NCBI GenBank assembly: GCA_023898465.1
Contig: CP060223.1
Coordinates: 224,001-288,000 of the forward strand
Direction of reading: 5' to 3'
Length of the DNA: 64,000 nt
DNA from: Candidatus Nomurabacteria bacterium
GTDB lineage: Bacteria; Patescibacteriota; Patescibacteriia; HK-STAS-PATE-3
Both the position numbers and the translations under genes were made by a program. The notes below the pieces were generated by a model, which ran no database searches, was not told where the DNA came from, and worked only from the letters and a program-made list of their open reading frames with translations. Below, in pieces: positions 1 to 48,715 of the stretch (positions are counted from its first letter, which is position 1; the number at the start of each line of letters is the position of its first letter).

Positions 1-111
1 TGTATGATTATGATGCTAATATTGGAGCGCCACCGCTTTGTATCGATGAAAGTCTGCCTTGTGAAGTAAGCTAATTACAAAATGGAAATGAAAGGGGGTG
101 AGACAGAAAGA

Positions 112-666: not shown

Positions 667-687
667 TTAGTCAAACACTATGTGTAA

Positions 688-718
688 GAATCAAAAAAGA
701 GCAGAAATGCTCTTTTTT
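688..718 (+). terminator. intrinsic terminator hairpin (aagagca-gaaa-tgctctt) followed by a T-run
   Basis: GC-poor stem-loop immediately 3' of the first pilin gene, followed by TTTTTTG. Confidence 0.5.
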
Positions 719-813
719 GAATTTGGTGTAGCAGGTAGTTCCGGGAGTTTAAGTTATGTAATGCAAGGTGGTTGCCTTGGTGATTTTCGCTATTTCTTGT
801 ATAATAATACTAC

Positions 814-1404
814 ATGTCGAATTCGCTTTATCACGGTTTGCTTAGTCTGATCTTGCTTGCTCCCTACATTGCGACTGTCCAATGGCGGAAAGCGATGAGT
901 CGTAAGATTTTTATTTGGTCAGTCAGCGGTATCATTGTTCTGATGTGTATACAAATGAGTATTCAGAGTGTCCAACTTTGGAATGAATACTCTAACGATC
1001 CGGTTGCCGCCTATTTACTACCACCTCATTCGAATGTCGTTTATTCGCATATTCTGAGATTAGGACAGCCGATACTTGTAGCAGTTATTACCGCACTAGT
1101 TACCTTTTCTGTTCTTTACTTTGCAAAAAAATACTTCCGACTCGGACAGTATGATGCTGAGGATATTCGCTGGTTGAGTTTGTCAGCTCTCTTGAGTTCT
1201 TGGCCAGGCGTCCTTATTACTTTTGTAAGCATATTTCTCATTGCTGTGTTGGCTCAGATAGTACGGGTGCTCATGGCAATGCGTAGTTCAGCTGAGCCAC
1301 CTCGACTTGTCCTCACCCCCTTTGTCGCCCCTGTCACCATTTTTATCCTCTGGTTTCTCCCAGATATTCTCCATGTTACCGGACTTGAAAAAATCCGATT
1401 CTAG
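814..1404 (+). CDS. hypothetical polytopic membrane protein
   Basis: 196-aa ORF with several hydrophobic segments, sited between two pilin genes. No recognisable catalytic motif. Confidence 0.5.
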   Translation: MSNSLYHGLLSLILLAPYIATVQWRKAMSRKIFIWSVSGIIVLMCIQMSIQSVQLWNEYSNDPVAAYLLPPHSNVVYSHILRLGQPILVAVITALVTFSVLYFAKKYFRLGQYDAEDIRWLSLSALLSSWPGVLITFVSIFLIAVLAQIVRVLMAMRSSAEPPRLVLTPFVAPVTIFILWFLPDILHVTGLEKIRF

Positions 1405-1897
1405 AAAAGGATTTACCCTAATCGAATTATTAGTAGTGATTGCAATTATCGGCATACTTTCGGGTATTGGTATTACACAATTTAATAAGTCGCGCGAAAA
1501 AGCACGTGATGCACAACGTAAATCAGACCTGGCGAATATTAGATCCGCACTATTGCTTTATTATGATGATTACGATTTTCTTTATCCAACAACCGTGACT
1601 GTAGGTGCACCGGACGCTTCCTTAGACGGCGTAGGTGTATTTGATGCGGATGAGGGCAATAATCCAATAGTACCCGAATATCTTGCGTCTGTGATATTAC
1701 CAAAAACTGACGACACCAATCATGAGTATTGGTATGACGCGACTGATGATGGGAGTGCGTATCTTCTGTATACTCATTTAGAGGGAGCTGATACAGACTG
1801 GTATTGGCTTGATTCTAACGGCAAAAACGGTGTTGAGTTAAATGCCAATACCCATACGGCAGATAATTGCAATGCAGGAACTAGCTGTACGTGGTAA
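1373..1897 (+). CDS. type IV pilin / pseudopilin (prepilin N-terminal motif)
   Basis: The ORF contains KGFTLIELLVVIAIIGILSGIG. The true start is probably ATG 1373 or the in-frame TTG 1385, which would give MKKSDSRKGFTLIEL. The upstream part of the track ORF overlaps the preceding gene. Confidence 0.75.
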   Translation: MLPDLKKSDSRKGFTLIELLVVIAIIGILSGIGITQFNKSREKARDAQRKSDLANIRSALLLYYDDYDFLYPTTVTVGAPDASLDGVGVFDADEGNNPIVPEYLASVILPKTDDTNHEYWYDATDDGSAYLLYTHLEGADTDWYWLDSNGKNGVELNANTHTADNCNAGTSCTW

Positions 1898-1906
1898 AAT
1901 ACATAT

Positions 1907-2326
1907 ATGGAAAACGCTAAGCAAAAAGGATTAGGACTAATTGAGCTCATTATCATTATCGGCCTTTTTGGCTTATTGATCGTGCTTGGCGTGATAATGT
2001 TAGGGAACGAGCGGGCTCGGACGCGGGATAGCCAGCGTTTGGCTGATATGACACGGGTGCAGGCAGCTTTTCAGCTGCTCTATTACACACAGGCAAGCTA
2101 CGCCGAGGCAGCGGATGGCTGTGATGAGGTGGGGACTGCGGTGGCTGCGTGTGGATTAGATCGCTACCTGAACGGAATTGGTACTTTGCAAGATCCGGGG
2201 TCTTTCTCTTACCGCATTGCCAAAGTGCCGGATGAGCACGGCTACGCGGTTGAGTTTACCTTAGAGCGCGGATATGGCACCCTAGCCCCGGGGTCGCATT
2301 TCTTGACTGAGCAGGGGATTCAATAA
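1907..2326 (+). CDS. pilin-like protein with a degenerate prepilin motif (GLGLIELIIIIGLFG)
   Basis: N-terminus MENAKQKGLGLIELIII retains E at +5 after G, followed by a hydrophobic helix. Confidence 0.6.
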   Translation: MENAKQKGLGLIELIIIIGLFGLLIVLGVIMLGNERARTRDSQRLADMTRVQAAFQLLYYTQASYAEAADGCDEVGTAVAACGLDRYLNGIGTLQDPGSFSYRIAKVPDEHGYAVEFTLERGYGTLAPGSHFLTEQGIQ

Positions 2327-2334
2327 CGATTCAG

Positions 2335-3099
2335 ATGGGGGATATGGACCAAAGCATCGCACTCATTGGCGCTATTGCGGTAGCTGTCTTTGGTTTGATT
2401 ATTGGCAGCTTTTTAAATGCAGCGCTCTGGCGGATGCGGGTACGGCGCTCTTTAGTAAGCGATCGTTCGCGATGTCCACATTGCAAGCACGTGCTTGGTC
2501 CAGCTGAACTCATCCCAGTGTTTAGTTTTTTCTGGCAGCGTGGTCGCTGTCGGCACTGCCGCCGCAAAATTTCCTGGTGGTATCCCGGCATAGAGCTGGC
2601 AACAGCGGCAGTGTTTTGCGTGAACTGGTTTCGTTTTGGTTTATCAACTGAGTTTTTTTACGTCACTGTTATTTCCGCTTTCCTCATTGTCATTTTCGTC
2701 TATGATGCGCGCTACAGTTTAATTCTCGATCGAGTTTCTTTGCCAGGCGCGGCATTGGCCTTCATCGGCAGTTTGTTACTTGGTGTGCCTTTTTGGGACG
2801 TGCTGCTCGGCGCGCTGATTGGTGGAGGATTCTTTTTCCTGCAGTATGTCATTTCCCGTGGTCGCTGGATTGGCGGAGGTGATATGCGTCTCGGGCTGCT
2901 GCTTGGTGCCTTCTTAGCCTGGCCGGAAATTGTCTTTGCACTGTGCCTCGCCTATATATTGGGATCGTTATATGGCATTGGTCTGGTTTTGAGTAAGAAG
3001 AAGTCTTGGCAAAGCGCTATTCCCTTCGGCACCTTTTTGAGTTTAGCAGCATACATTTTTTATTTAATGAGCGATCGTGTCCTTCCATACCTCACCTAA
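2335..3099 (+). CDS. pilD: prepilin leader peptidase / N-methyltransferase (peptidase A24, PilD family)
   Basis: A CxxC...CxxC zinc-binding tetracysteine (CPHCKH...CRHCRR) is followed by polytopic membrane segments and a GGGDMRLG active-site-like motif. Confidence 0.85.
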   Translation: MGDMDQSIALIGAIAVAVFGLIIGSFLNAALWRMRVRRSLVSDRSRCPHCKHVLGPAELIPVFSFFWQRGRCRHCRRKISWWYPGIELATAAVFCVNWFRFGLSTEFFYVTVISAFLIVIFVYDARYSLILDRVSLPGAALAFIGSLLLGVPFWDVLLGALIGGGFFFLQYVISRGRWIGGGDMRLGLLLGAFLAWPEIVFALCLAYILGSLYGIGLVLSKKKSWQSAIPFGTFLSLAAYIFYLMSDRVLPYLT

Positions 3100-3751
3100 A
3101 AAATCGCAGCACGGTTTCACAATGATTGAGCTAGTTGTCTCAATCGCAATTTTTGGCATACTCGCCGGGATTCTTGGTTGGAATTTTAGCCGCTTCCGAG
3201 AAAATGATGATTTACGTCTAGCCGCTGAACAGCTGATGACTGATCTTCGTACTGCGCAAAATACTGCCATGACCGGTCAGGTGATTGATGATCCAGGACC
3301 AGGAGATCCAGCCGTGCCAATTGGCGGCTATGGCATTCATTTTAATCTCAACATAGGCAACAACGAATATTGGATGTTTGCGGATCGAGAGAGTTACAGT
3401 GGGACAACTTGTGTTCCTGTACGCAACGAGCGCTTTGATCAATTAGTAGCCGACCCTCCGAGCACGTGTATGACTGATGGGGTGAATGATGATTTAGATG
3501 CAGCGCCTAATCCGGTACAATTACCCGGCGATGTGATTATTGAAGCCTTGCGAGTAGATGGAACACAAAGCATTACCGACGTGGCCTTTTTGCCTCCTAA
3601 ACCACTCCCTTATGTAGCTTACGGCGATCTGACAAATGCCGCCGTAGCTGGGAAAACTATTGAGATTGACCTCCGTCATACCGTGACAAACCAGCTCCGA
3701 AGGGTTACTGTAGTAGGAGCATCAGGTCAAATAAGTGTCAGCACACCATAA
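3077..3751 (+). CDS. pseudopilin / minor pilin (prepilin N-terminal motif)
   Basis: Contains HGFTMIELVVSIAIFGILAG. The start overlaps the 3' end of pilD. Confidence 0.7.
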   Translation: MSFHTSPKKSQHGFTMIELVVSIAIFGILAGILGWNFSRFRENDDLRLAAEQLMTDLRTAQNTAMTGQVIDDPGPGDPAVPIGGYGIHFNLNIGNNEYWMFADRESYSGTTCVPVRNERFDQLVADPPSTCMTDGVNDDLDAAPNPVQLPGDVIIEALRVDGTQSITDVAFLPPKPLPYVAYGDLTNAAVAGKTIEIDLRHTVTNQLRRVTVVGASGQISVSTP

Positions 3752-3757
3752 TTATCT

Positions 3758-4342
3758 ATGCATCGATTTTCACACAATCAAGAAGGTCAAACCCTGGTCG
3801 AGGTGATTATCGCGGTTTCGATTCTCTTGGCTGGTATTGTTACCTCCTTAACCCTTGGCATTGTGACGGTGCGGGCTGGTCAAGTGTCCCAAAACCGTAC
3901 GATTGCAGATAATCTAGCTCGGGAGGGTTTAGAGTTGGTGCGTACTATGCGCGATACCAATTGGCTGCAGGATAATGTATGGGACCAGGGCTTATGTGCC
4001 TCTGATGACACTACTGCTATTCCAGATTTTTTACCGGATGTAAATGCGTGGAGTCTTGATTTCAGCGTAGATGATTTTGCGGACGCCAATGCACAGGTCT
4101 TATATAGAGAAGATCGAGAAAATTCACTTCGCCCGCTTGATTACTACATGCAAACAGCTGGACCTCGACCGGACGGATCAACGCCGAGTCGCTTCCGTCG
4201 TTTATTAACGATTAGTTCTGATGACGGTAGCTGTGTCGATGCTGATGTCTCGTATACAGTGAAGTCAGAAGTGCAGTGGGATGAGGGTGGAACAACCCAT
4301 TCCTCAATAGTAGAAGAGCGACTCTTTGATTGGAGGACATGA
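3758..4342 (+). CDS. pseudopilin, PilV-like (prepilin motif GQTLVEVIIAVSILLAG)
   Basis: N-terminal G-QTLVE motif plus a hydrophobic helix. Confidence 0.65.
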   Translation: MHRFSHNQEGQTLVEVIIAVSILLAGIVTSLTLGIVTVRAGQVSQNRTIADNLAREGLELVRTMRDTNWLQDNVWDQGLCASDDTTAIPDFLPDVNAWSLDFSVDDFADANAQVLYREDRENSLRPLDYYMQTAGPRPDGSTPSRFRRLLTISSDDGSCVDADVSYTVKSEVQWDEGGTTHSSIVEERLFDWRT

Positions 4343-5175
4343 TGAGGTTGCGACGCTTATTGTATAAGAAAATATTTGCCCGAGAAGAAAAAGGATTCAC
4401 CTTGGTGGAAATTCTCATGGTGCTCGGCATTTTCTCAACCGCACTACTTATGGTGGTGAATATTTTTGTTACCTCGACTCGTTTGCAGCAGCGCACACTG
4501 ACTGCCCAGCGCCTGAGTGCTGATGCGCGATTTACTTTAGAGACCATGGCCCGGGCAATTCGAAGTGGTACGGTTGACTATGATTTTTATCACGCACGAA
4601 CGCCATACGTTTCAACAGAGTACGAGATGAAGATTACCGACCCTAGCTATCCTCTGCATGTGTTGTCAGTTATTGATCCGGATGGAAACCGTACGATTTT
4701 TCGCCGTCAGAGTCTGGATCCGGTAAATGACCCCTGGGGGAATGATAAGAGTGGCGGATTTGAAAAAGTTGGAGACAAGCTAGAAGTATGTTTAGAGAGC
4801 AACCTTTGTATAGATCCAACAGATTATGAGGGTTCCTCAAAAACGCTTTGCAACTCTGACAGTGAGTGCGGAGAGACTGGTGAATCTTGTTTGCTTTCCT
4901 GTAATTACCAAGGTGCTTGGAGCGACATTACTCCAGAGGGCGTCCGTTTAACCGGTGGATCACAACATCCCACCGAGCCCTATGGCTTTAAGGTAACCTT
5001 GACCCCCCCGTATAGTCCTTTCTTAATTCAGAATAATGAAACTGGCGAATATAAAGCTGATGAGCAGCCCCGGGTTTCCATACTCATGATAACCAAGGGC
5101 AATGGCAATGACCAAGATGAGCTGAAAGAAGTGAAATTACAAACAACCGTAAGTACGCGTGTGTATGGACGTTAA
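4330..5175 (+). CDS. minor pilin, PilW-like (prepilin motif KGFTLVEILMVLGIF)
   Basis: N-terminal prepilin motif. The C-terminal part is Cys-rich. Confidence 0.6.
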   Translation: MEDMMRLRRLLYKKIFAREEKGFTLVEILMVLGIFSTALLMVVNIFVTSTRLQQRTLTAQRLSADARFTLETMARAIRSGTVDYDFYHARTPYVSTEYEMKITDPSYPLHVLSVIDPDGNRTIFRRQSLDPVNDPWGNDKSGGFEKVGDKLEVCLESNLCIDPTDYEGSSKTLCNSDSECGETGESCLLSCNYQGAWSDITPEGVRLTGGSQHPTEPYGFKVTLTPPYSPFLIQNNETGEYKADEQPRVSILMITKGNGNDQDELKEVKLQTTVSTRVYGR

Positions 5176-6034
5176 GCAATTTTCACATTCGCAAAAAGAT
5201 GAACGCGGTATCGTGATGCTTTTGTCTTTACTCGTATTAAGCGCCTTAACTGCGGTAGCGATTGGCACCTCGGTGCTGATTATTAAAGAAGTCCAACAGT
5301 CTTCAAACATTGATCGTTCTCTGATGGCCTACTACGCAGCAGAAACGGGAATTGAAAAAGGACTCTACACCGTTAAGATTGGTCGACAGACGAATCAAGA
5401 GCTTGCTGATATTCTCAATGATCTGAATGACGGCGGCGCCATGAGCAATGGAGCAAGCTGGTCAACGGATGAGAGTACCACCAGCGAGGAATATTCCCTC
5501 AGCTCGCTAAAGGAAAATCAATCAACCGTGCTTGATCTCTACGATCCTCTCGATCCAACTGAAGGTGGTTATGAGAGCTTTGGTGTTGAGGCGCTTGATG
5601 CAAAGCCGCTCCAAAATCCAGCTTGGTTGGAAATCAGTTATTTCCCTTGGACTATAAACGGCGGCTTACTTGATTGGGACGATGATAATGTGGAGAAGCG
5701 TCTCCGCTCAGTATATGAAACCCAGCCAAATGTGCCGGCCATCTTTGACCTCTTACCAAATCAAAATTATCGCATCCGCGTGCGGGCGCTCTATGATGAT
5801 CTGCGTAATGTGCGCATTACTGCTTTCACCGAAGATGACCCGACAGATACTGATGTATGTAATCCGGCCTATAGCTGCATAAAGTCGATTCCAAATCGAG
5901 TGTTGATTCGCTCGCTTGGTGCCTCGGGCGGTAACCAGAGTGCCTTATCAGCCTCAGTGCCATATCAAGCGCCAGCCTCTGGTATCTTTGACTTCGTGCT
6001 CTTCAGTGAGCAGACGATTGATAAGAGGACCTAG
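5159..6034 (+). CDS. PilX-like pilus assembly / minor pilin protein
   Basis: The N-terminus ERGIVMLLSLLVLSALTAVAIGTSVL resembles the PilX N-terminal domain. It is the last gene of the pilin cluster. Confidence 0.55.
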   Translation: MCMDVKQFSHSQKDERGIVMLLSLLVLSALTAVAIGTSVLIIKEVQQSSNIDRSLMAYYAAETGIEKGLYTVKIGRQTNQELADILNDLNDGGAMSNGASWSTDESTTSEEYSLSSLKENQSTVLDLYDPLDPTEGGYESFGVEALDAKPLQNPAWLEISYFPWTINGGLLDWDDDNVEKRLRSVYETQPNVPAIFDLLPNQNYRIRVRALYDDLRNVRITAFTEDDPTDTDVCNPAYSCIKSIPNRVLIRSLGASGGNQSALSASVPYQAPASGIFDFVLFSEQTIDKRT

Positions 6035-6113: not shown

Positions 6114-9035
<2,922 letters not shown>

Positions 9036-9076
9036 GCATAGCGACAGCTGGGACGAACTTTGCTAGACTAGCCTAT

Positions 9077-9376
9077 ATGTCATCGAAATATGCAAAAATC
9101 GACCTCTTAGCTGATATGGCAAAGATTGCCCTGACTGATGAGGAGCAGAAAAAACTAGAAAAAGAACTGCAAAGCATCTTAGCCTATGTGCAGGTCCTTG
9201 ATAAGGTTGATACTTCGAGTACACCGCCTACGCGTCATGTCAGCGGTCTCATCAATCAGACAAGAGAGGATAAGATTGTCCCTTCTGATCATGCGAGTGA
9301 GATTACTCGTCAATCCCCACGACGTTCAGGATTTGAGATTCCTTCGGTACGTAGCTTATGGACTTCAAAGAAATAA
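9077..9376 (+). CDS. gatC: Asp-tRNA(Asn)/Glu-tRNA(Gln) amidotransferase subunit C
   Basis: 99-aa protein immediately upstream of gatA and overlapping it. N-terminal I...LA.M..I.L..EE pattern typical of GatC. Confidence 0.8.
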   Translation: MSSKYAKIDLLADMAKIALTDEEQKKLEKELQSILAYVQVLDKVDTSSTPPTRHVSGLINQTREDKIVPSDHASEITRQSPRRSGFEIPSVRSLWTSKK

Positions 9377-10818
9377 CCCTTAGCCGAGCTCTGGAGGGAT
9401 TACGCTCGGGAGAATATAGCGCGATTGAGTTGACGCAAAGTTTGCTAGAACGCAGTGCTCAACTTAACCCCAAACTCAACGCCTACATTTCCATTCATGC
9501 TGAGCAGGCTATGGCCGCAGCCCAAGAGGCTGATGCCAAACTTTCTCGGGGTGAGGACATTGGACCCTTAACTGGCATCCCAATAGCAGTGAAGGATGGA
9601 ATTGTGACGAAGGGCCCATCAACGGCCGGCTCTCACATGCTTGAGCATTTTAGCGCTACGTATAATGCCAGTGTGGTGGAGCGATTACAGCAGGCCGGCG
9701 CTATTATCTTAGGCAAGACAAACTGCGATGAATTTGCTTTTGGCGTATCAGGTGAGTACTCAGCTTTTGGGCCAAGTCGTAACCCATGGGACACTGAGCG
9801 AGTGCCAGGTGGTTCATCATCCGGCTCAGCTGTTGCGGTTGCCGCAGGCTTAGCGCTTGGGTCACTTGGTAGTGATACCGGCGGATCAGTTCGTCAGCCG
9901 GCGAGCATGACTAATCTTGTCGGTATCCGCCCGAGTTATGGACGAGTAAGTCGATATGGTTTAATCGGCACCGCTTCCTCGCTTGATACGATTGGCGTCT
10001 TTGGTCGTAACGTTGAGGATGCCGTGCGCATCTTCCAGGCAATAGCCGGACATGATACTAAGGACGCAACTTCGTTGCCTGATGCAGTGCCGGACTATTT
10101 AGCGCTTATGCAGGAAAAAAATCGTAAACTGCGTATTGGTATACCAAAGGAATATTTTAGCGACGCCTTACGAGATGATGTGCGTGCAGTGGTAGAGCAG
10201 GCGATTATGACTTTGCGGCAGCTTGGTCACGAGCCAGTGGAGATTTCTTTGCCGCACACCGAGGAGTCGCTGGCAGTCTATTACATTCTCAACCCTTCTG
10301 AATCATCTTCCAACCTCGCACGCTTTGATGGCATTCGTTACGGACACTCAGCGCTGGAGAAAAATGAGAAAGCGCCGCTAGGTGAAGTGTTTGCGAAAAG
10401 TCGTGATGAGGGTTTTGGTCCAGAAGCAAAGCGACGCATTTTACTCGGCACCTTTGCCTTATCCAGCGGCTATGCAGCGAAATATTATGTGAAGGCGCAG
10501 CAAGTTCGCACTTTAGTAAAAGAGGACTTCACAAATGCCTTTCAATCGGTTGACCTGATTGTTACCCCGACTGTACCAGAGCCAGCCTGGAAAATCGGCG
10601 AAGTGCAAGATCCTTTGAAGCTCTATCTGGCTGATATTTTCATGACGGCGACCAGCTTAGCCGGACTGCCAGCCATTTCCGTTCCTGCTGGCTTTGTCGA
10701 CGGATTACCCGTTGGTATGCAGATTATTGGCAAGTCATTAGCCGAAGCAGAAATATTTGCCCTGGCTCAGCAATATGAGAATTCAAGTGAATGGGTAAAG
10801 CAATTTCCCAAACTTTAG
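9358..10818 (+). CDS. gatA: Glu-tRNA(Gln)/Asp-tRNA(Asn) amidotransferase subunit A (amidase signature family)
   Basis: Amidase signature GGSSSGSAVAVAAG...GSDTGGSVRQPAS. Length 486 aa. Confidence 0.95.
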   Translation: MDFKEITLSRALEGLRSGEYSAIELTQSLLERSAQLNPKLNAYISIHAEQAMAAAQEADAKLSRGEDIGPLTGIPIAVKDGIVTKGPSTAGSHMLEHFSATYNASVVERLQQAGAIILGKTNCDEFAFGVSGEYSAFGPSRNPWDTERVPGGSSSGSAVAVAAGLALGSLGSDTGGSVRQPASMTNLVGIRPSYGRVSRYGLIGTASSLDTIGVFGRNVEDAVRIFQAIAGHDTKDATSLPDAVPDYLALMQEKNRKLRIGIPKEYFSDALRDDVRAVVEQAIMTLRQLGHEPVEISLPHTEESLAVYYILNPSESSSNLARFDGIRYGHSALEKNEKAPLGEVFAKSRDEGFGPEAKRRILLGTFALSSGYAAKYYVKAQQVRTLVKEDFTNAFQSVDLIVTPTVPEPAWKIGEVQDPLKLYLADIFMTATSLAGLPAISVPAGFVDGLPVGMQIIGKSLAEAEIFALAQQYENSSEWVKQFPKL

Positions 10819-10882: not shown

Positions 10883-11260
10883 ATGGCGGAAAAAAAGACC
10901 AAGGTCCTTATTGTAGAAGACGAGAAAATGCTCGCCGATATGTATGGGACGAAATTCAGTATGGAGGGGTATGAAGTAGAAAAGGCGAATGATGGTGCGG
11001 CTGGTTTAGAAAAAGCAAAAACCATGCAGCCGGATATCATTCTCTTGGATGTTATTATGCCAAAGATGGACGGTTTTACCGTGCTTAAGGCGCTGAAAGA
11101 AGAGTCAAGGTTAAAAGATACCCCAGTCATCTTGTTGACCAATCTAGGTCAGGACGATGATGTAAAAAAAGGGAAAGAGCTCGGAGCAAATGATTATTAT
11201 GTGAAATCAAATCACAGTCCTTCCGAGATCGTCGAAAAAGTAAAACAAGTTATTCAGTAA
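10883..11260 (+). CDS. single-domain response regulator (CheY-like receiver)
   Basis: KVLIVEDE...DIILLDVIMPKMDG...K receiver motifs. No output domain. Confidence 0.85.
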   Translation: MAEKKTKVLIVEDEKMLADMYGTKFSMEGYEVEKANDGAAGLEKAKTMQPDIILLDVIMPKMDGFTVLKALKEESRLKDTPVILLTNLGQDDDVKKGKELGANDYYVKSNHSPSEIVEKVKQVIQ

Positions 11261-11284
11261 GATATTTTAATTTATCAAACGCGC

Positions 11285-11890
11285 ATGTCAGAGACACAGC
11301 CGAATTTTATCGAACGCACCGTTGTCTTGGTGAAACCAGATGGTGTGAAGCGGGGATTAGTCGGGGAAATAATTGGCCGATTTGAAAAGACCGGCTTAAA
11401 AATAGTCGGAATGAAAATGATCTGGGTTGATAAAGAGCTGGTGGCTAAGCACTACCCAGAATCACGCACCGAATTGCTGCGAGGTATCGGTGAAAAAACT
11501 TTGAAGACCTATCAAGAGTACGGCATGGATCCAAACGAGCAATTGGGAACTATGGATCCGCTGGAAATTGGTAAGATGGTGAATAACTGGAATATTGATT
11601 TCCTCACCTCAGGTCCAGTTATGGCTATGGTGCTCGAAGGTCTGCACGCCATTTCTAACGTACGACAAATAGTTGGTAATACTTTACCGGTCTTTGCTGA
11701 TCCAGGTACCATTCGTGGTGATTACTCACTGGATTCTCCGGCTATGGCCAATCAACAGAAGCGAACGGTCCGTAACCTGATTCACGCTTCAGGTAACGCT
11801 GAAGAAGCAAAGTATGAAGTTGAGCTATGGTTCCGTGAGAACGAGCTCTATACCTACAAGCGCAGCGACGAAGCGGTGATGTACGAGTAG
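11285..11890 (+). CDS. ndk: nucleoside-diphosphate kinase-like protein
   Basis: ERT(V/L)VLVKPDGV... and NLIHASG (NxIHxSD-like) motifs. It is longer than the canonical NDK because of inserted segments. Confidence 0.8.
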   Translation: MSETQPNFIERTVVLVKPDGVKRGLVGEIIGRFEKTGLKIVGMKMIWVDKELVAKHYPESRTELLRGIGEKTLKTYQEYGMDPNEQLGTMDPLEIGKMVNNWNIDFLTSGPVMAMVLEGLHAISNVRQIVGNTLPVFADPGTIRGDYSLDSPAMANQQKRTVRNLIHASGNAEEAKYEVELWFRENELYTYKRSDEAVMYE

Positions 11891-11905
11891 TTTATTCTCT
11901 GAAGC

Positions 11906-11940
11906 AAAAAAAAGACCGGGCCACGTGCCCGGTTTTTTAA
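11906..11940. terminator. bidirectional intrinsic terminator (aaaaaaaa-gaccgggc-cacg-tgcccggtc... tttttt)
   Basis: Perfect GC-rich hairpin flanked by an A-run and a T-run. It sits between the convergent ndk and the 11937..12569 gene. Confidence 0.7.
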
Positions 11941-12569
11941 ATGTGTTCTTTCGCTAGCCGTTTAAGTTTTTGGCCCGCAGAGGTTGTTGTAATTTTATTT
12001 GTAATGGCGAGTCCGTGCTTTAATTGGCTCACTGTTTTTTCAGGGGCATATGAATGCGGTGAGTCTGCAAACTTATCTAAAAAGTTTTCTTTTAGTGTTT
12101 TAAATTTTTGCTCATCAAATTTGTTAGAGTTACGATCGTAGCTGAGTTCATAAATTGTCGCTAGTTTGTCTTGATATACTTCAGCTCTATGTTCTGTTGT
12201 TACCCAAAAGAAATCATTATCTTTTTTTGAGGATTCTTGCATTGCTTCACATTGGCTATAAAAAACACTTATTTCTTGTAGTTCATCTTGATCAAAGTCC
12301 GCAGCAAAAAGATACGAGAAGTCTCTCCAGCTATTATTAGGTAAAATATGAGGAAAATCTTTTGCACCTCTCTCCACTAAGCCTCGTATTTCTTCGATCC
12401 TTTGTTCAGCGTTACGAATTTCGGTTAATAATATTCGCGCTACATCAGTTTTTTTATCTTTTCTCTGACGTCGATATAATATTAACGTAGATAGTCCAAG
12501 TAGGCCGACTAGAAATGTAGAGAACGCTTCAACGTGATCGATAAATAAGTAAGAAATAATATGATTCAT
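11937..12569 (-). CDS. hypothetical N-terminally membrane-anchored protein (AT-rich gene)
   Basis: 210-aa ORF with one N-terminal hydrophobic helix followed by a charged soluble region. No recognisable family. Confidence 0.5.
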   Translation of the reverse strand: MNHIISYLFIDHVEAFSTFLVGLLGLSTLILYRRQRKDKKTDVARILLTEIRNAEQRIEEIRGLVERGAKDFPHILPNNSWRDFSYLFAADFDQDELQEISVFYSQCEAMQESSKKDNDFFWVTTEHRAEVYQDKLATIYELSYDRNSNKFDEQKFKTLKENFLDKFADSPHSYAPEKTVSQLKHGLAITNKITTTSAGQKLKRLAKEHI

Positions 12570-12590
12570 ATAGAGTATTAGTTATTTGTA

Positions 12591-12667
12591 TGGTCGGGGT
12601 GGCGGGACTTGAACCCACGACCTCATGCACCCCATGCATGCGCGCTAGCCAACTGCGCCACACCCCG
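12591..12667 (-). tRNA. tRNA-Pro (anticodon GGG)
   Basis: The reverse complement folds as a cloverleaf: acceptor CGGGGTG/CACCCCG, D-stem GCGC/GCGC, anticodon stem CATGC/GCATG with loop ATGGGGT, T-arm GTGGG-TTCAAGT-CCCGC, discriminator A and an encoded CCA. Confidence 0.9.
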
Positions 12668-12742
12668 ACGGCGGCATAACCTTAGCACCTAGGGGAATGT
12701 CTCGTAAAGCGCTATACTGAGCTTGTAATAGGGTATGGGTAT

Positions 12743-13348
12743 ATGCGCATTCGTCAATGGATAATTGGCATTCTCGTGCTCGCCACTGGACTGACAGTGT
12801 CTATTCAAGCTGGTAACTTTGTGTCGAATCATTGGGCTACTCATCCCAGCGTGCATGACATTGTGCTTGAGCATATTCCTTATGTGAATTTATTTTTTAT
12901 AGGCGAGATGTTGTACTGGCTAGTGCTGGCTACATATTTGCTTTTGTATATTCGTTATCAACGCGCACAGATTCCTTACATTCTTTGCTTGGTCGGCATC
13001 TATTATCTCTTGCGTTCTCTCTTCCTTATTCTTTTACCCATTGGTCATCCGTTTAGTGCGCCAGAGTATGGAGAACGCTGGAGTGCCTATCCGCAATTTG
13101 CTTATTTTCCCAGCGGTCACCTTGGCTTCCTCACCATCATCACGCTTGGCTTAGGGCCGATTCGTTTTCACCGTTGGTTTTGGTTGCTCGTACTTTTCTT
13201 TGGTGTAGGCATGATCGTCACGCGGGCACATTACACTGTGGATATACTTGGAGCAGTGGTTATTGCGTATGCCGTGTACGCGTTTGCGGAACAACATTTA
13301 CGTTCGCGTTGGTTTGCAAAAAACACTCAGCCGGCGCTGGGCAAATAA
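12743..13348 (+). CDS. PAP2-superfamily membrane protein (phosphatidic-acid-phosphatase-like)
   Basis: Six hydrophobic segments with PSGH and RAHYTVD motifs, matching PAP2 motifs 2 and 3. Confidence 0.6.
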   Translation: MRIRQWIIGILVLATGLTVSIQAGNFVSNHWATHPSVHDIVLEHIPYVNLFFIGEMLYWLVLATYLLLYIRYQRAQIPYILCLVGIYYLLRSLFLILLPIGHPFSAPEYGERWSAYPQFAYFPSGHLGFLTIITLGLGPIRFHRWFWLLVLFFGVGMIVTRAHYTVDILGAVVIAYAVYAFAEQHLRSRWFAKNTQPALGK

Positions 13349-13361
13349 TTTTTCCTAGTGC

Positions 13362-14024
13362 TTATCTCAACCCTTCACTAAGCACCGCGTCTAAATCCCA
13401 ACGCACTCGGCGACGCTCTGGCTTGGCAAAAATATATTCAAAAACTTTTTGCATAAATCCAAACACTGCAGATCTCAATGAAAAGTCAGTTGGGCCAAGG
13501 AGTTTTTCACGCTCGCTGTTATTCAGTGGTCGGGCGCCAGCACTTTGTCTCAGCTCATCAAAGGCCTCATCGCCAATTTTTTGGTGTAAGGCATCCATAA
13601 AGCGGCGGAGCAATTTTCTTGCCCGCGCATAATCACGCAGATTCCAATCAGGGTTAAAAAAGAGCGAGAGGGTGCGCACGGCATGCTCCTCATTTGTCAT
13701 ACCCTGATGTACTGCCAGGTCTTGAATAAGGTGGATAGCAAAACCCAGCCAGACTAATCGCTCAGAGCTAGGGCTGTGTTGTATTTGCGCTATGTATTCT
13801 TTTAGCTGCGCACTGGTTGCTTGAGAGGCGAGCTTCGGGTCGGTAGGTTCGCCGTACTCAGTAGTACTCGGAGTTGCTGCATTTGGGATGCATTTATTCC
13901 AGCGGTGCCAATCAGTCCACTGGGCACTTTGGCCTAGGATGCCAGCAGTTTCTTTGCTAAAGCCGTATTCACGCGCTACAGCCATTGCTTGTCGTTTATG
14001 GAGGTAGGGGATCATGTTCTCCAT
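13362..14024 (-). CDS. hypothetical protein
   Basis: 220-aa ORF. It contains HLIQDLAVHQGMTNEEH (an H-x3-D...H pattern) but I cannot assign a family. Confidence 0.5.
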   Translation of the reverse strand: MENMIPYLHKRQAMAVAREYGFSKETAGILGQSAQWTDWHRWNKCIPNAATPSTTEYGEPTDPKLASQATSAQLKEYIAQIQHSPSSERLVWLGFAIHLIQDLAVHQGMTNEEHAVRTLSLFFNPDWNLRDYARARKLLRRFMDALHQKIGDEAFDELRQSAGARPLNNSEREKLLGPTDFSLRSAVFGFMQKVFEYIFAKPERRRVRWDLDAVLSEGLR

Positions 14025-14071
14025 AGTAGCCTGAAAAACTGAGTAAAGCGAATGGATATACTTGACAAATT

Positions 14072-14100
14072 ATATAATTAGTAGTATAATACTCAGTTCT
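14072..14100 (+). promoter_or_regulatory. consensus sigma70-type promoter (TTGACA - 17 nt - TATAAT) reading into the GC-rich islet
   Basis: Exact -35 TTGACA and -10 TATAAT with a 17-nt spacer. A second TTGACA lies about 35 nt downstream. Confidence 0.5.
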
Positions 14101-14265
14101 ACGCTAAAAATAGCGAAATTTGTCAAGCGTATGAACCCCCTCCGTATTGGCCTCGGACAAAATCGAGGTCAGTGCGGAGGGGCGCACATTGAGAATTCAT
14201 CTCGTGTATGTTACTCCGGCTTGCTTCGACGGAAGTAGGTCTAGACCAAACGTTTGGGGGAAGAA

Positions 14266-15516
14266 ATGCAAAGCAAGGGTTTCTGGTTCACGTTGATCAT
14301 GACCAGCTTGGTCATGTTGCTTCTCTCCGCGGCTATGGCGCAAGCCACGTCGCAACCGATGATTCCGAGGAGCCTCCTGGCAACCCCTTGGCACACTGCC
14401 GAGGACGCGAGTGGCGATCTCATCGTCACTACCCAGGATTCCGACATCAACGGTATCTGGTCTTCGTCTCACGCAGACTCGTCTGCCGAGGCCGTGGCTA
14501 TGTGGGCGGACATCGTCGCCTACAACAAGCAGCATGGAATGACTGGGAAGGACTTCACCCGGATGATTCCGGGCGAGACCACCTACCGTGTGCCTGTCTG
14601 GCGGGCGGAGCAGTTCAAAGCGTGGTACAAGTCTCGCAACAACGTGCCGACGGCCACGTCTGCAATCGAGTCTGCTCCGGAATCGACCAACCCTGGTCGC
14701 GGATTCCCAGGCTTCCTCGGCGGTCTACTGGCTGCTGGAGCTCTGGTCGGTGCGACTACTCTCGGAACCCGGCAACGGAGGCGCTTGCTTCAACCGTCCA
14801 ACGCAAACCCGATGCGGCAAAGCCCGCTCGAGAATGTCGAGGACGCGGCGACAGAGGTTCGGGAGCAGATCCTGGCCTTCAGTCGTCTCAACCCCACGTC
14901 TCCGGAATCTCTGGTGAATCCGGAGGAATGGACCATCGTCAGCGCTGTCCGTGGCCTCGGTAACGGGGCGGTCGAGTCCCACTTCAGCAACGGTTCCACG
15001 AGGAAGGAGAACTTCCACAACGAGCCGTGCTACGAAGTGACGGCGCGCAACACTTCGGGTGAGGAGCGCAAGTTCTACATCCGGATCAAGTGCGCGAACC
15101 AGCTCACCGGCCTGACGGGTCAGTTCGGGCTCGACGACTTCACCTTCACTCCTGGAGGCGATGCAGTCGAGCTGAACATGCCTTTCGTACCCGCCGCTGA
15201 CCCCACCCCCGCCACCACTGCTACCGCTGACTCGACTCCGGCTGCTACTTCGACCGAAAGCGCTCCTGCGCCGACGGACGAAGCTGCTCCGACCGAGGCT
15301 GCTCAGGTTCCGGCCGAGACCGAGGCAGATCTTGACCTGGTCAAGATCGAGGCTCTGGGCGAGGGTCAGTTCCGGATCACGCGATCTGGACAGCCCCTCG
15401 AAGTGAATGGTGACTACATCACCATTACTAGCTGGAAGGGCTTCAGCTTCTTTCATCGGGGGAATGAGACCCTGGTGATTCCGCCGAAGTCCACCGACAC
15501 CACCCCGCAGGCCTAA
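14266..15516 (+). CDS. secreted protein with Thr/Pro/Ala-rich linker (G+C-rich gene, probably horizontally acquired)
   Basis: Signal peptide MQSKGFWFTLIMTSLVMLLLSAAMAQA|TS. The low-complexity linker PTPATTATADSTPAATSTESAPAPTDEAAPTEAA is typical of high-GC Gram-positive secreted proteins. Codon usage is G/C-rich, unlike the flanking sequence. Confidence 0.6.
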   Translation: MQSKGFWFTLIMTSLVMLLLSAAMAQATSQPMIPRSLLATPWHTAEDASGDLIVTTQDSDINGIWSSSHADSSAEAVAMWADIVAYNKQHGMTGKDFTRMIPGETTYRVPVWRAEQFKAWYKSRNNVPTATSAIESAPESTNPGRGFPGFLGGLLAAGALVGATTLGTRQRRRLLQPSNANPMRQSPLENVEDAATEVREQILAFSRLNPTSPESLVNPEEWTIVSAVRGLGNGAVESHFSNGSTRKENFHNEPCYEVTARNTSGEERKFYIRIKCANQLTGLTGQFGLDDFTFTPGGDAVELNMPFVPAADPTPATTATADSTPAATSTESAPAPTDEAAPTEAAQVPAETEADLDLVKIEALGEGQFRITRSGQPLEVNGDYITITSWKGFSFFHRGNETLVIPPKSTDTTPQA

Positions 15517-15550
15517 GAGCCTAGCGGACACGAGATGAACCCGAGCCCCG

Positions 15551-15592
15551 TTTGCTACATGCAGCGGGGCTCTTTTCTTTGCTATACTGTAC
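15551..15592 (+). terminator. intrinsic terminator (gagccccg-...-cggggctc + TTTTCTTTG)
   Basis: GC-rich hairpin followed by a T-tract directly 3' of the secreted-protein gene. Confidence 0.6.
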
Positions 15593-15619
15593 ATAGACGT
15601 GCTTACACAGGAGGGAGTC

Positions 15620-15904
15620 ATGTCAGACGCTCATTGCAACGGTACTGCACAGGGAGTTCCTGAGATTCGCGAGGTGCAGATTGGACTTCACGAAGGGGTG
15701 GTACGTGCGCATCTGCTGCACGGGACTGGTCCTTTTGATCATGTAGAGCTCAAGGATGCCGGTAACTGCCTCTTGGTGACCGCTGATGGCACCGTGCTAT
15801 CGCTCACGCTTGCTTCGGAGACCATCATGGCTGCTACCTGGCATGGGCGACTTCAATCAGTGCAGGAAGCTGCTGAACGAGGTAGCGATGTGCCGCAGCA
15901 GTGA
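15620..15904 (+). CDS. hypothetical small protein (G+C-rich)
   Basis: ATG at 15620 is preceded by GGAGGGAG. The 94-aa protein begins MSDAHCNG. No family recognised. Confidence 0.4.
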   Translation: MSDAHCNGTAQGVPEIREVQIGLHEGVVRAHLLHGTGPFDHVELKDAGNCLLVTADGTVLSLTLASETIMAATWHGRLQSVQEAAERGSDVPQQ

Positions 15905-16029
15905 GACAAACACAATCAATATCCCACCTGCCTAGGTTTCATTACGAGACATGGGCAGGTTTCACATGTTGACAGCTTTTAGGGGATTCTCTAGAATCGA
16001 ACAGTCTTACTGGCTAAATAGAAAAACAC

Positions 16030-16344
16030 ATGCGCGAAAGCGAAGGATTCTCCCCAGAATTTATGGAAAACGAAAGCGACAGTGCGATGAGCGCTGAAGC
16101 GGCCGAAGCAAATTTCATTGATGAGGGAGCCCAACAGTGCGTGGTGATTGAGCCAGGCAATATTGACGTACAAACTGTCACCCAATTTGCCACAGAGCAG
16201 GGAGCGCTCATCGAGGACGAAGACGGTGGCAATCAGGATCGTTATGTGATTCGTTTCCCCGAGGGTGAACAGCAAGCGCTGACCTACGAGGAATTACGCG
16301 ACCAGATCGAAGTACATGCCCAGGAATGGGCCGAGGCAGCCTAG
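16030..16344 (+). CDS. hypothetical small acidic protein
   Basis: 104-aa, strongly acidic (E/D-rich) ORF preceded by a TTGACA-17-TAGAAT promoter at about 15969-15997. Confidence 0.45.
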   Translation: MRESEGFSPEFMENESDSAMSAEAAEANFIDEGAQQCVVIEPGNIDVQTVTQFATEQGALIEDEDGGNQDRYVIRFPEGEQQALTYEELRDQIEVHAQEWAEAA

Positions 16345-16717
16345 CCTAAAGAACGCAGCTCTTGTGCCCTAATGAGCAAGAGTGCGCTTTTCTATTGGGC
16401 GAAGTTTTAGTACAATGCAAAAACCGGCGACATGTCTTGCCTAGTACCGGTCTTTCCACTTACGCTTTCTGCTTCTGGTTGTGGGTTCGGATGCAAGAAG
16501 TGCAAGCCTTTACGCGCTTGCCATCAACCAGCAAGGTCTGCAAATTCACATGCTGCTTGCGCTTCGTAGCGATATTTGAGTGGCTGCGGCTGACTGCATT
16601 CATAGCTCCTCGACCGCAGATTGTACATGTCCGTGCCATACTGGCCTTTCCTTATTTCCAACAAGTAGTAACGCACCATAGACTAGCAGTCGACCCTAGT
16701 CTGGTCAAGTCCTTCCT

Positions 16718-17344
16718 ATGATTCTCGACCTCCTTTTCACCGATCCAGCCATATTCCTCATCTACCTAGGGGCAATAATCGTGCCAATTGCTTTGCATGA
16801 GTTTGCGCACGCGTTATCAGCCACGATGCAGGGCGATCCAACCCCAAAGGCTATGGGACGCCTGACCTTCAACCCATTGGCGCATATTGACCCCATGGGC
16901 ATCCTGCTCCTCCTTATTGCGGGATTTGGATGGGGGAAGCCAACCCCATTTAACCCAATAAACCTTAAAAATCCGCGTTTGGGTACGGTTTGGGTGGCCT
17001 TAGCCGGTCCTTTGTCAAACCTTATCCAGATCATAGTTTTTGGTATTTTCTTGAAATTTGTAGCGTTTTTAGGGCCAAGCAACTACCTGGTGATTTTCTT
17101 AGCCGCCTTGTTACAAATTAATATTATTCTCATGCTCTTTAACCTTATTCCCATTCCGCCTTTGGATGGATCAAAAGTACTTTTTGGTTTTTTGCCTCCC
17201 TCTACCTTGGAATTTCAAGCAAGATTTGAGCGTATTGGGCCGCTGGTGTTGCTGGGGATTATTATCGTAGATCAGTTTACCGGAATTGGAGTCTTTCACT
17301 GGATATTTAGCGGAATAACCAACGCAATCTTTTCATTTTTTTAA
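16718..17344 (+). CDS. site-2-protease-like zinc metalloprotease (peptidase M50 family), membrane
   Basis: HEFAH (HExxH) lies within the first TM helix of a polytopic membrane protein, the typical M50/SpoIVFB-like architecture. Confidence 0.7.
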   Translation: MILDLLFTDPAIFLIYLGAIIVPIALHEFAHALSATMQGDPTPKAMGRLTFNPLAHIDPMGILLLLIAGFGWGKPTPFNPINLKNPRLGTVWVALAGPLSNLIQIIVFGIFLKFVAFLGPSNYLVIFLAALLQINIILMLFNLIPIPPLDGSKVLFGFLPPSTLEFQARFERIGPLVLLGIIIVDQFTGIGVFHWIFSGITNAIFSFF

Positions 17345-17490
17345 AGAAAAGCACCTGAAGCGCAAAAAAGCCTCGTCGGCTTGACGAAGTGCCATGCTCA
17401 TGGTACCGTGCTCGTCGTTACACCCGATTTTCCGGTTGCAGCAATGTACGCGACTTTGGAAGCCAATCTGGTGCTGAATGAAGAATTTTT

Positions 17491-17907
17491 ATGCCTACAA
17501 CTAGCCAACTTGTCCGCAAAGGACGCAAACGAGAGCAAACGAAGTCAAAGACTCCGGCGCTCGAAACTACCTTAAACGCCTTGAAGCGCAAACGCACCTA
17601 CCTGAAGAAGGGTAGTCCTTTTAAGCGTGGTGTATGCGTGAAGGTAACGACTACTACCCCTAAAAAGCCAAACTCAGCTTTGCGCAAAATTGCTCGTGTA
17701 CGTCTTTCGAACGGCATGGAAGTGACTGCGTACATCCCGGGCATGGGTCATAATCTCCAAGAACACTCTGTGGTATTGATTCGTGGCGGTCGTGTCAAAG
17801 ACCTTCCAGGTGTCCGTTATCACATCGTCCGTGGCGTCTATGACACCCAGGGAGTAGCTGAACGGAAGCAAAGCCGCAGTATTTATGGAGCTAAGAAAGG
17901 AAAATAA
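17491..17907 (+). CDS. rpsL: 30S ribosomal protein S12
   Basis: [12 protein letters not shown]...[10 protein letters not shown]...[28 protein letters not shown]. Confidence 0.95.
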
Positions 17908-18371
17908 TGCGAGGAAAGCGAGCACCAAAGCGTACCATTGCCCCTGACGCACGTTACCAAAACGTCATGTTGGCAAAGTTTATCAATTTGATTATGGAGC
18001 GCGGTAAGAAGAGCGTAGCTACTCGAATCGTCTACGGCGCTTTTGATGTGATTAAGGAAAAGACTGAGCAAGATCCTATCGAGGTATTTGATCTCGCTAT
18101 CCGCAATGTCGCTCCAGTATTAGAAGTGAAATCAAAACGCGTTGGTGGTGCAAACTACCAAGTGCCGATTGAAGTCCGTGGTGATCGCCGCATTGGTTTA
18201 GCTATGCGTTGGATTATCGCTGCCGCCCAAGGCAAAAAAGGACAGCCAATGCACGTGAAATTGGCCGAAGAGCTCATTGCTGGCTCCAAAAAAGAGGGTG
18301 AAGCCATGAAGAAGCGAGAAGATGTGCATCGCATGGCCGAAGCAAACCGCGCCTTCGCTCACTTCGCGTAG
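17907..18371 (+). CDS. rpsG: 30S ribosomal protein S7
   Basis: Conserved S7 sequence. Follows rpsL in the str operon. Confidence 0.95.
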
Positions 18372-42972: not shown

Positions 42973-43391
42973 TACTTGACAACCCACTTCACAGGAGTAC
43001 ACTAAATGCACAATTGGTGGCGATCTCTGCCTGGCACTGACCAGGTTGTCCGGAGACGCCATGTTTTTGTATGCGCGTGTTCTTCCTCCTTGCCGCAGGG
43101 TGTAGCTCGGCTCCGCTCGCTACCCATTTCTCGGCATCGGTCTCTTTGCGATGATCGAAACGAAGAGCGTCTTTTTCTACTCTCCTGCAGGGGCGGTGCG
43201 GGAGCGCGGAATAGTTCCGGGCTTCATTTCCTCACATGAGGAAAGCGGCTTTGTTGCCGTTTTGCACCTTGAAATGCATGGAGGTTCGCCATGACTTGGC
43301 GTTTCCGACTCTTCCTGCTCATGGCCATCGCGTTGACCATGACACCCCTCGCTTTCATGACCGGCTGCCAGGAGCTGCCGACGGAGGGGGA
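42973..43391 (+). repeat. direct repeat copy A: promoter + 5' leader + signal-peptide cassette (partner at 46570..46894)
   Basis: Near-identical to copy B apart from one insertion of about 94 nt and scattered substitutions. It spans TTGACA through the first about 34 codons of the lipoprotein gene. Confidence 0.85.
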
Positions 43392-44028: not shown

Positions 44029-44101
44029 ATAGTGGGGGGTGCTGGAAAGTTTTTCAGTTCCCCCCACCTCCCACAAAGTCAATTATTTACTTCATAAGTA
44101 T

Positions 44102-48682: not shown

Positions 48683-48715
48683 TTTCATATATCAGTTGGG
48701 AGGTTTTTATTAAAC

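Follow-up and report, generated by a model that had tools for sequence, protein, structure and literature searches.

A G+C-rich islet in the genome of a Candidatus Nomurabacteria bacterium (GenBank assembly GCA_023898465.1) is one autonomous monocistronic transcription unit, made up of a promoter, a structured and conserved leader, one open reading frame (ORF) and a terminator. The stretch of DNA analysed, hereafter the window, spans 64,000 nucleotides (nt) of contig CP060223.1 (positions 224,001 to 288,000), and coordinates without a further label refer to it. The gene of the unit, H6760_01035, encodes a member of an uncharacterised protein family of the Patescibacteria, or Candidate Phyla Radiation (CPR). 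We put the probability at roughly 55% that the unit encodes a peptidoglycan-tethered bitopic envelope protein of this CPR family, occupies a variable slot, takes part in frequent homologous exchange and is G+C-rich as a by-product. The unit and the parts of its product are as follows.

14062..14090, + strand: sigma-70-type promoter, TTGACA-17-TATAAT, a 12/12 match to the consensus
14091..14265, + strand: structured 5' leader of ~175 nt, with hairpins including 14137-14182, judged by its fold against shuffled sequences
14266..15516, + strand: main coding sequence, 416 amino acids (aa), NCBI H6760_01035
14266..14346, + strand: predicted signal peptide, aa 1-27, ending AMA-QA, with a hydropathy peak at aa 3-30
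14410..14637, + strand: ectodomain, a divergent LysM-like module, aa 49-124; beta-alpha-alpha-beta in the AlphaFold2 (AF2) model at a predicted local distance difference test (pLDDT) score of 80-93; swapped between alleles
14704..14790, + strand: predicted transmembrane helix, aa 147-167, at the second hydropathy peak, then basic TRQRRRLL
14827..15186, + strand: central alpha/beta domain, aa 188-307, AF2 pLDDT ~90, predicted cytoplasmic; family motif ..EP.Y...V.......E..Y....C.N.L
15187..15330, + strand: low-complexity linker rich in P/T/A/E, aa 308-355, AF2 pLDDT < 50
15331..15486, + strand: small C-terminal beta-strand domain, aa 356-407, AF2 confidence low; aligns with the homolog module ..DG.V.FEF......P..VR..G....EF.......T.RYR..
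15543..15581, + strand: intrinsic terminator by predicted fold, stem 15543-15572 and T-tract 15573-15581

Between 14301 and 15400 the G+C content is 58-69% in steps of 100 nt, compared with 46.3% for the whole window. The main ORF has 60.9% G+C and a G+C content at third codon positions (GC3) of 0.731, the highest among the 77 ORFs of the window (mean 0.447, standard deviation (sd) 0.085; runner-up 0.62). Re-encoding its protein with the codon usage of the window gave 51.1% G+C and a GC3 of 0.453 +/- 0.023, which places the observed GC3 at z = 12. Both C- and G-ending codons are enriched (C/(C+T) 0.84 vs. 0.37; G/(G+A) 0.75 vs. 0.47), G+C is uniformly high over the entire ORF, and the composition changes abruptly at the borders of the gene. 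The islet reported in an earlier note on this DNA, made from the sequence alone, is thus borne out, and the main gene is compositionally alien to its genome. The same note had counted the small ORF that follows as part of the islet. The main gene is strongly G+C-rich, but this ORF (15620-15904; G+C 0.565, GC3 0.52) and the one after it (16030-16344; G+C 0.533, GC3 0.55) are each about 1 sd above the window mean; as both are only mildly G+C-rich, the strong islet is one gene.

Two causes for the composition were considered and rejected. Amino-acid composition accounts for about 5 of the 15 extra G+C points, and synonymous codon choice for the remainder. Translational selection would predict a similar pattern in the ribosomal-protein and elongation-factor genes of the host, yet these have a GC3 of 0.44 and four-fold sites that are T-rich and G-poor. 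Because they behave differently, the codon bias of the main gene is not the translational optimum of the host.

The promoter is the sole perfect TTGACA-17-TATAAT in the 64 kb, where 0.36 sites with at most one mismatch are expected by chance. It had been noticed before, but at 14072-14100, about 10 nt away from its true position; likewise a hairpin with a T-tract does follow the gene, but at 15543-15581 instead of 15551-15592. The leader between promoter and gene folds with a minimum free energy of -73.8 kcal/mol, compared with -47.7 +/- 3.9 for shuffled sequences (z = -6.7). Its closing stem pairs 14119-14130 with the region immediately 5' of the Shine-Dalgarno sequence GGGGGAAG, and a 12-nt palindrome, CCAAACGTTTGG (14246-14257), lies directly 5' of the same element. 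In a scan of 11000-18000 with the Rfam 15 covariance models at E <= 1, only tRNA was found and the leader had no match. From these signals the unit is probably strongly expressed. A perfect 12-nt inverted repeat, TTCATCTCGTGT (14196-14207, in the leader) and ACACGAGATGAA (15528-15539, in the 3' untranslated region), also brackets the ORF. It could permit pairing of the two ends of the mRNA; by our own estimate about 0.8 such pairs arise by chance per 5 kb, and it was not used as evidence. The 5' arm carries a T-to-C change in the diverged allele L099 described below, which was compared at that arm only.

The product, previously given as 417 aa, is 416 aa plus the stop codon, and its predicted domain architecture is signal peptide, LysM-like ectodomain, transmembrane helix, alpha/beta domain, linker and beta domain. 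An N-terminal hydrophobic segment ending in ..A(A)Q is found at the equivalent place in most full-length homologs, and every homolog that covers the transmembrane region has an aligned hydrophobic segment followed by R/K. By the positive-inside rule, everything C-terminal of aa 167 is predicted to be cytoplasmic. This includes the linker PTPATTATAD...AETEAD, which is present at aa 308-355 as had been quoted; P/A-rich linkers occur at the same position in most family members. The main product is therefore likely a type-I (bitopic) membrane protein and not a soluble secreted factor, as it had been called when the helix at aa 147-167 with its TRQRRR, conserved in the family, was overlooked.

The family had to be assembled from distant similarities. 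Searches with the main protein in Pfam, NCBIfam, PHROGs, PADLOC (E <= 0.1) and the PDB gave no match, and a word-indexed homology search with the single sequence returned only the protein itself (a hypothetical protein from a Candidatus Nomurabacteria metagenome-assembled genome (MAG)). With the full alignment the same kind of search again found the protein only, probably because linker words swamped it, and an alignment of the central domain added only fragments. A full phmmer scan of 1.84 billion representative proteins yielded 10 distant relatives, with E values from 2.6e-9 (P0002) to 5e-4 and identities of 27-38%, and a metagenome scan with a 5-sequence alignment added 6 further loci. The full-length relatives all share one architecture, namely signal peptide, ectodomain, transmembrane helix, central domain, P/A-rich linker and beta domain (22-sequence alignment). 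Similarity to the family is significant through the central domain with its conserved G..G, C.N and F.F positions; this domain, for which no recognisable homolog was found, contains an invariant G, C and N and the motif ..EP.Y.ARVRFPDG.EE.Y.LQ.CGNDL....RY.PG..FRF.

The homologs are surrounded by CPR-type housekeeping genes, such as nusA, ppa, clpP, rny, uvrA/C, grpE-dnaK, pilB/C, dprA-topA and gyrB. Such genes flank 7 of the 8 relatives with readable neighbours; the eighth (P0003, at locus L095) is on a short contig. Organism labels are attached to two relatives only, "Parcubacteria group bacterium" and "bacterium". The family is so far known only from genomes of the CPR/Patescibacteria type and has no Pfam or NCBIfam model. 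P0003 (L095 1297-1617) is a stand-alone protein of 106 aa that is 38% identical to the window ectodomain and has neither transmembrane helix nor cytoplasmic part; its gene lies 3' of a lipoprotein gene on a contig of 56% G+C. This type of ectodomain is therefore in circulation as a separate module too. At L002, a Parcubacteria MAG, the family gene and a tyrosine recombinase gene (8868-9830) adjoin a tRNA called by ARAGORN with anticodon UUA ("Stop"; L002 8485-8561, - strand), which may be a suppressor tRNA or have a mis-assigned anticodon.

The ectodomain region (aa 28-146) has a beta-alpha-alpha-beta core that is confident in the AF2 model, a secondary structure compatible with LysM. In a core subfamily, the N-terminal domains can be assigned to LysM by profile comparison. 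Their profile matches LysM chains in the PDB, with TsaP first (6ve2, E = 9e-9), followed by Kbp and LytE, and 7/10 of these domains give weak matches to Pfam LysM (E <= 1, best 4.8e-4, gathering score not applied). Aligned to the LysM-type N-domains of the family with hhalign, the window ectodomain is in register at a probability of 41% (E = 2.8e-4), while a profile of the ectodomains of the window protein, P0002 and P0003 found no LysM chain in the PDB.

The clearest view of how the locus evolves comes from a comparison of the window with two Logan assemblies, L098 and L099, that were made independently from other sequencing runs. L098 is 99.9% identical to 15017-18359, which covers the 3' half of the main gene, the small ORF, an M50 peptidase gene and rpsL. 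L099, from a related strain, carries a diverged allele at the same place and spans the 220-aa gene on the left flank, the leader and the main gene. Its nt identity to the window varies strongly from block to block.

Flanking 220-aa gene: 92.0%
Promoter: 62%, with the hexamers kept (TTGACT/TATAAT) and a different spacer
Leader: 97.7% (Fisher p = 0.006 vs. flank)
Signal peptide and ectodomain: not alignable at the DNA level
14680-14952: 67%, with 23 synonymous and 37 non-synonymous codon differences in ~91 codons
14953-15216: 98.5%, 4 differences in 264 nt (p = 6e-5 vs. flank)

This alternation shows a recombination mosaic, in which the exposed domain has been replaced as a module. The ectodomain of L099 matches the family profile of LysM-type N-domains with an hhalign probability of 78% and has no Pfam LysM match. 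The L099 allele is G+C-rich as well, with a GC3 of 0.74 compared with 0.44 for its neighbour, and its existence rules out both an assembly artefact and a very recent insertion specific to one genome. Beyond the 220-aa gene, L099 has an unrelated ORF of at least 339 aa without a Pfam match (L099 1908-2927, - strand) instead of PAP2; synteny is lost precisely where the 220-aa gene ends, and the DNA on that side is thus variable as well.

An elevated G+C content is the usual state of the family. Compared with the prediction from host codon usage, GC3 is at least 5 sd higher in 9/15 family loci and about 2 sd higher in 2 more (11/15 in total). Three or four family genes match their host or fall slightly below it, and no excess or a deficit is seen at L005, L006, L091, L094 and L097. 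The G+C content of the family genes, 57.5 +/- 6%, is uncorrelated with that of the host (r = 0.19), and GC3 is up to 0.28 above that of hosts with G+C as low as 36%. L092 is the extreme: the gene, between dprA and topA, has 55.7% G+C (GC3 0.56) and the other ORFs have 35.7% (GC3 0.28 +/- 0.03). Among the fetched loci, 5/9 family genes lie at least 0.08 above the median G+C of their locus, compared with 11/1022 other ORFs (p = 5.5e-8). A property that most family genes share and that does not follow host G+C cannot identify a G+C-rich donor phylum.

Two pairs of loci share their position. At L002 and L004 the gene divergently adjoins nusA, the NusA, PPase and ClpP proteins of the two are 60-67% identical (NusA 60%), and both copies are GC3-rich (z = 6 and 8). 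At L005 and L096 the gene is upstream of grpE. A GC3 excess is present at 3 of these 4 loci, L005 being without it. That the composition has not ameliorated over so long a residence speaks for a bias that is maintained, and not just carried over from a recent donor. The earlier note had named, as the observation that would speak against its account, homologs of similar composition at syntenic positions throughout related CPR genomes. Such homologs do occur in many CPR genomes, but synteny was seen in one close relative only.

The expression signals recur with the gene. A promoter of the type TTGACA-17/18-TAnnnT followed by a leader of 80-200 nt is present at all 12 family loci with upstream DNA, and at 16/16 loci, read by eye, a hairpin with a T-run lies within about 90 nt after the stop codon. 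Because promoter, leader and terminator recur at the family loci, the promoter is part of the unit. The suggestion that the gene had been placed under a strong native promoter does not agree with this pattern.

Seven core-subfamily leaders have in common a long hairpin with a 5' GG bulge; next come a GAAYGTTYGA box and the Shine-Dalgarno sequence. In this hairpin 8/12 pairs change compensatorily and 93.9% of the cells are paired; the covariation score is 0.69, compared with 0.27 for shuffles (0/500 reach the observed score) and at most 0.10 for slid controls. The hairpins, none with an Rfam match, lie at L092 9485-9571, L093 2440-2522, L094 4596-4675, L091 9418-9508, L007 9909-10003, L006 9877-9976 and L004 10013-10118; the leaders of the homologous loci in general also gave no Rfam match. 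The core-subfamily hairpin is a candidate for a new cis-regulatory RNA. A covariance model built from the seven leaders (R1) matched only its training loci, with no match in the window leader at E <= 10, and it likewise misses the leaders of L002, L005 and L096. The window leader shares with the core leaders only the AACGTTTG box and general hairpins upstream of it.

These observations fit together if the unit encodes a membrane protein with a variable LysM-type or LysM-like cell-wall-binding module outside the membrane, followed by one transmembrane helix and, on the predicted cytoplasmic side, an alpha/beta domain, a P/A/T-rich spacer and a small beta domain. The locus would evolve through frequent homologous recombination of diverged alleles, with the ectodomain exchanged as a module. 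The high G+C and GC3 would then result from recombination, either by GC-biased gene conversion, which is a hypothesis, or through alleles shared among lineages, and not from a one-off actinobacterial import. In the lineage of the window, the unit occupies a variable accessory-gene slot between the 220-aa gene and rpmB. The protein may be a scaffold or sensor that spans the membrane, is tethered to peptidoglycan and highly expressed, and has its exposed part under diversifying pressure.

Several points weigh against this account. The mosaic was read from one allele pair, and constraint at the nucleotide level, instead of recent exchange, could account for the 98.5% block and the conserved leader. 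The G+C excess is common but not universal and also fits plain lateral transfer among lineages; the L097 gene is even AT-richer than its sole neighbour (40.7% G+C, compared with 51% for gyrB). The window ectodomain has no match in Pfam at E <= 0.1, LysM (PF01476) included. Signal peptide and topology were derived from hydropathy and the positive-inside rule only, high expression was read from sequence signals, and the taxonomy of most homolog contigs was assigned from their gene content. A broader version would make the family a widespread recombination hot spot of Patescibacteria, a hypervariable envelope locus whose unit, from promoter to terminator, persists as a whole and stays G+C-rich whatever the host G+C. 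GC-biased gene conversion or a common pool of alleles would have left this composition as its trace, and the leaders would belong to one or more undescribed classes of cis-regulatory RNA that control an abundant transmembrane protein tethered to the cell wall. This version is tentative, and we doubt it more than we believe it.

The slot and its borders in the window consist of the following features.

13362..14024, - strand: divergent 220-aa gene, host-like in composition (G+C 0.49, GC3 0.46), left edge of the slot
15620..15904, + strand: 94-aa orphan ORF in the variable slot; its Shine-Dalgarno sequence, AGGAGGGAG, is strong
15969..16344, + strand: second autonomous unit, with promoter TTGACA-17-TAGAAT (15969-15997) and an acidic orphan ORF of 104 aa (16030-16344)
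16460..16639, - strand: rpmB (L28), right edge of the slot, followed by the M50 peptidase gene, rpsL, rpsG and fusA

Two of the three best promoter matches in the 64 kb fall within this 2.4-kb slot. The 94-aa ORF has no Pfam, NCBIfam, PHROG or PADLOC match, and its only homolog among the fetched loci is in the same-strain contig L098. The 104-aa ORF has no family match above threshold (a weak one, E = 0.022, is to a PHROG of unknown function), and variants at >= 90% identity occur in Logan/ENA contigs. The order rpmB-M50-rpsL-rpsG-fusA is kept in L009-L021 and at other loci. L010, the nearest species-level relative in GTDB (aa identity 71% for M50, 81% for EF-G and 90% for S12), has the order gatA, response regulator, ndk, tRNA-Pro, PAP2, 220-aa gene, slot, rpmB, M50, rpsL, rpsG, fusA; its 220-aa ortholog is 40% identical and has the same PAP2 and tRNA-Pro neighbours. 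In L010 the slot is filled by a lipoprotein-like ORF and a gene for an Mrr/ATP-cone nuclease, without a family member, and among the 80 loci that share the M50/rpsL context none has a family member within 10 kb. Of the earlier proposal of horizontal acquisition, the alien composition, a slot that holds unrelated accessory genes in L010 and the gene's own strong promoter and terminator are supported; the G+C excess is typical of the family and names no donor.

Other parts of the window also vary in content or composition. A 210-aa ORF (11937-12569, - strand; 35% G+C, GC3 0.26) abuts tRNA-Pro(GGG) at 12591-12667 and is replaced in L010 by an unrelated 448-aa ORF; it marks another variable slot, at a distance of 1.5 kb from the islet. 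An integrase- or tRNA-associated island was considered for the islet itself and rejected, as the tRNA-Pro is separated from it by two genes that are syntenic in L010. Further away, the block 47500-55500 is AT-rich (28-40% G+C vs. 46%), an anomaly opposite in direction to the islet, and holds tandem paralogous membrane ORFs of ~220 aa (48941-49600, 49602-50261 and 50261-50932). Two lipoprotein-like ORFs of 52-56% G+C (43291-44028 and 46794-47492) begin with the same 33 aa, MTWRFRLFLLMAIALTMTPLAFMTGCQELPTEG, and enclose AT-rich ORFs at 44039-45255 (33-39% G+C); these may correspond to the other islet of the earlier note or to another variable region.

A rival explanation is a mobile cassette resembling a phage moron, a single-gene unit inserted fairly recently in each genome from G+C-richer Patescibacteria or from their unsampled phages or plasmids, with a G+C content that would simply mirror the donors. 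Morons are single accessory genes in phages, with their own promoter and terminator and a deviant base composition (PMC4378225), and the window unit likewise has one ORF between a sigma-70-type promoter and a factor-independent terminator, deviates in composition and lies where relatives have either nothing or other genes between the same neighbours. The family loci are mostly non-syntenic, as the L092 gene between dprA and topA illustrates; the unit is missing from the L010 slot and from all 80 loci with the M50/rpsL context; the deviations go both ways, L097 being AT-richer than its neighbour; and at L002 the gene adjoins a tyrosine recombinase gene and a tRNA. On the other hand, the 5-sequence alignment had no match in 2.9 million IMG/VR contigs, tblastn found no relative in GenBank phages and PLSDB plasmids, and PHROGs and BFVD were likewise without a match. 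Unlike a moron, the unit is not in a prophage: its neighbours are PAP2, rpmB, M50 and rpsL, and for the main gene and four neighbours no PHROG match was significant (four had none) and there were no viral or phage matches. Among the scanned window genes there is no integrase or recombinase, and flanking direct repeats are short and at chance level. A tRNA is near in 4/15 family loci, a share close to chance expectation for compact genomes. The GC3 excess at 3/4 old shared positions (not at L005) argues against recent arrival, and the unit, also unlike a moron, has a long conserved leader and appears old and vertically kept at some loci. We consider recent insertion of a cassette unlikely, at about one chance in four.

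A native gene, inherited vertically, might also have acquired its composition through selection on the transcript, with G+C-rich codons, 5' stem-loops and terminator favoured for a stable and abundant mRNA, e.g. against AU-preferring ribonucleases. The sole perfect consensus promoter in 64 kb, the very stable leader, the 8/12 compensatory pairs of the core-subfamily hairpin, the uniformly high G+C along the ORF and the persistence of the excess at shared positions in divergent hosts are all compatible with such selection. However, the ribosomal-protein and elongation-factor genes of the host show no such shift (GC3 0.44), L005, L006, L091, L094 and L097 have no excess or a deficit, and the mosaic divergence and the ectodomain swap are left unexplained, making selection on the transcript improbable as the main cause.

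In favour of the model of the earlier note, an actinobacterial secreted protein captured by a strong native promoter, are the GC3 of 0.73 and the Thr/Pro/Ala-rich linker, which resemble those of actinobacterial secreted proteins (a resemblance only), and the location of the promoter in AT-rich DNA. The model is already contradicted and very improbable: no actinobacterial homolog was found at E <= 1e-3 among the 1.84 billion representatives, nor was any among the hits of the word-indexed searches; the relatives share the architecture and, where readable (7/8), CPR-type neighbourhoods; promoter, leader and terminator recur at homologous loci; and the linker comes after a predicted transmembrane helix. 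The abrupt step in composition at the gene borders might suggest that foreign reads were joined into the MAG contig as a chimera during assembly or binning; this is refuted by L098 and L099, which reproduce the junctions independently.

The reading we prefer, a recombining unit for a peptidoglycan-tethered CPR protein, joins elements that each have known counterparts: a membrane protein anchored by LysM, a unit of the moron type and a mosaic gene for a surface protein. The exported N-terminal LysM-type module of the core family matches by profile those of the TsaP/Kbp type (PDB 6ve2, 3jc8, 7pvc). FimV and HubP are scaffolds with a LysM module, a transmembrane helix and a cytoplasmic part, and the window protein would have a comparable layout: outside, a domain that binds peptidoglycan; then a single transmembrane helix; and inside, an acidic region of low complexity and a domain. 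Type IV pilus genes are near in the window and at L004. In the window, type IV pilin-like genes (N-termini of the GFTLIELLVV type) and a prepilin-peptidase-like ORF (2335-3099) occupy 82-6034, ~8 kb upstream of the islet; at L004, pilB/pilC are directly downstream of the family gene. Outside the LysM module, the window protein resembles those LysM-anchored proteins neither in sequence nor in fold, and it lacks FimV and tetratricopeptide-repeat motifs. The alpha+beta roll domains of the PepSY/cystatin/NTF2-like type (YpeB 5boi, YpmB 2gu3) are also among the closest known systems, and no PADLOC anti-phage defence family was matched by the main ORF or its neighbours at E <= 0.1.

Surface-protein genes that are mosaic and diversified by recombination occur in other bacteria, and GC-biased gene conversion has been hypothesised for bacteria. 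The window locus resembles the former in its adjoining blocks of very different divergence, with the exposed module replaced between conserved flanks, and agrees with the latter in a GC3 raised at a recombining locus; it differs in that a single allele pair represents it and that gene conversion is hypothetical here. A GC3 shift as large as +0.28 over the host is not known to have been reported for recombining core genes. What is new is the undescribed family itself, its unusual G+C-richness independent of the host, and its conserved leaders, which are uncatalogued.

Few CPR bacteria, or Patescibacteria, have been cultivated, and for the majority of their envelope proteins a function has yet to be assigned. 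The family defined here is clear in its architecture, has an expression unit of unusual strength and conservation, and carries an ectodomain that is not the same in two alleles of one locus. Such properties would be expected where a protein meets host cells or phages. Its leaders are candidates for new regulatory RNAs. For the detection of genomic islands, the family calls for caution, as a G+C-rich islet of a single gene is its typical state and not a sign of recent import from a G+C-rich phylum. If the composition is due to GC-biased conversion at a recombination hot spot, the family would provide a compact natural test of that hypothesis in small, AT-leaning genomes.

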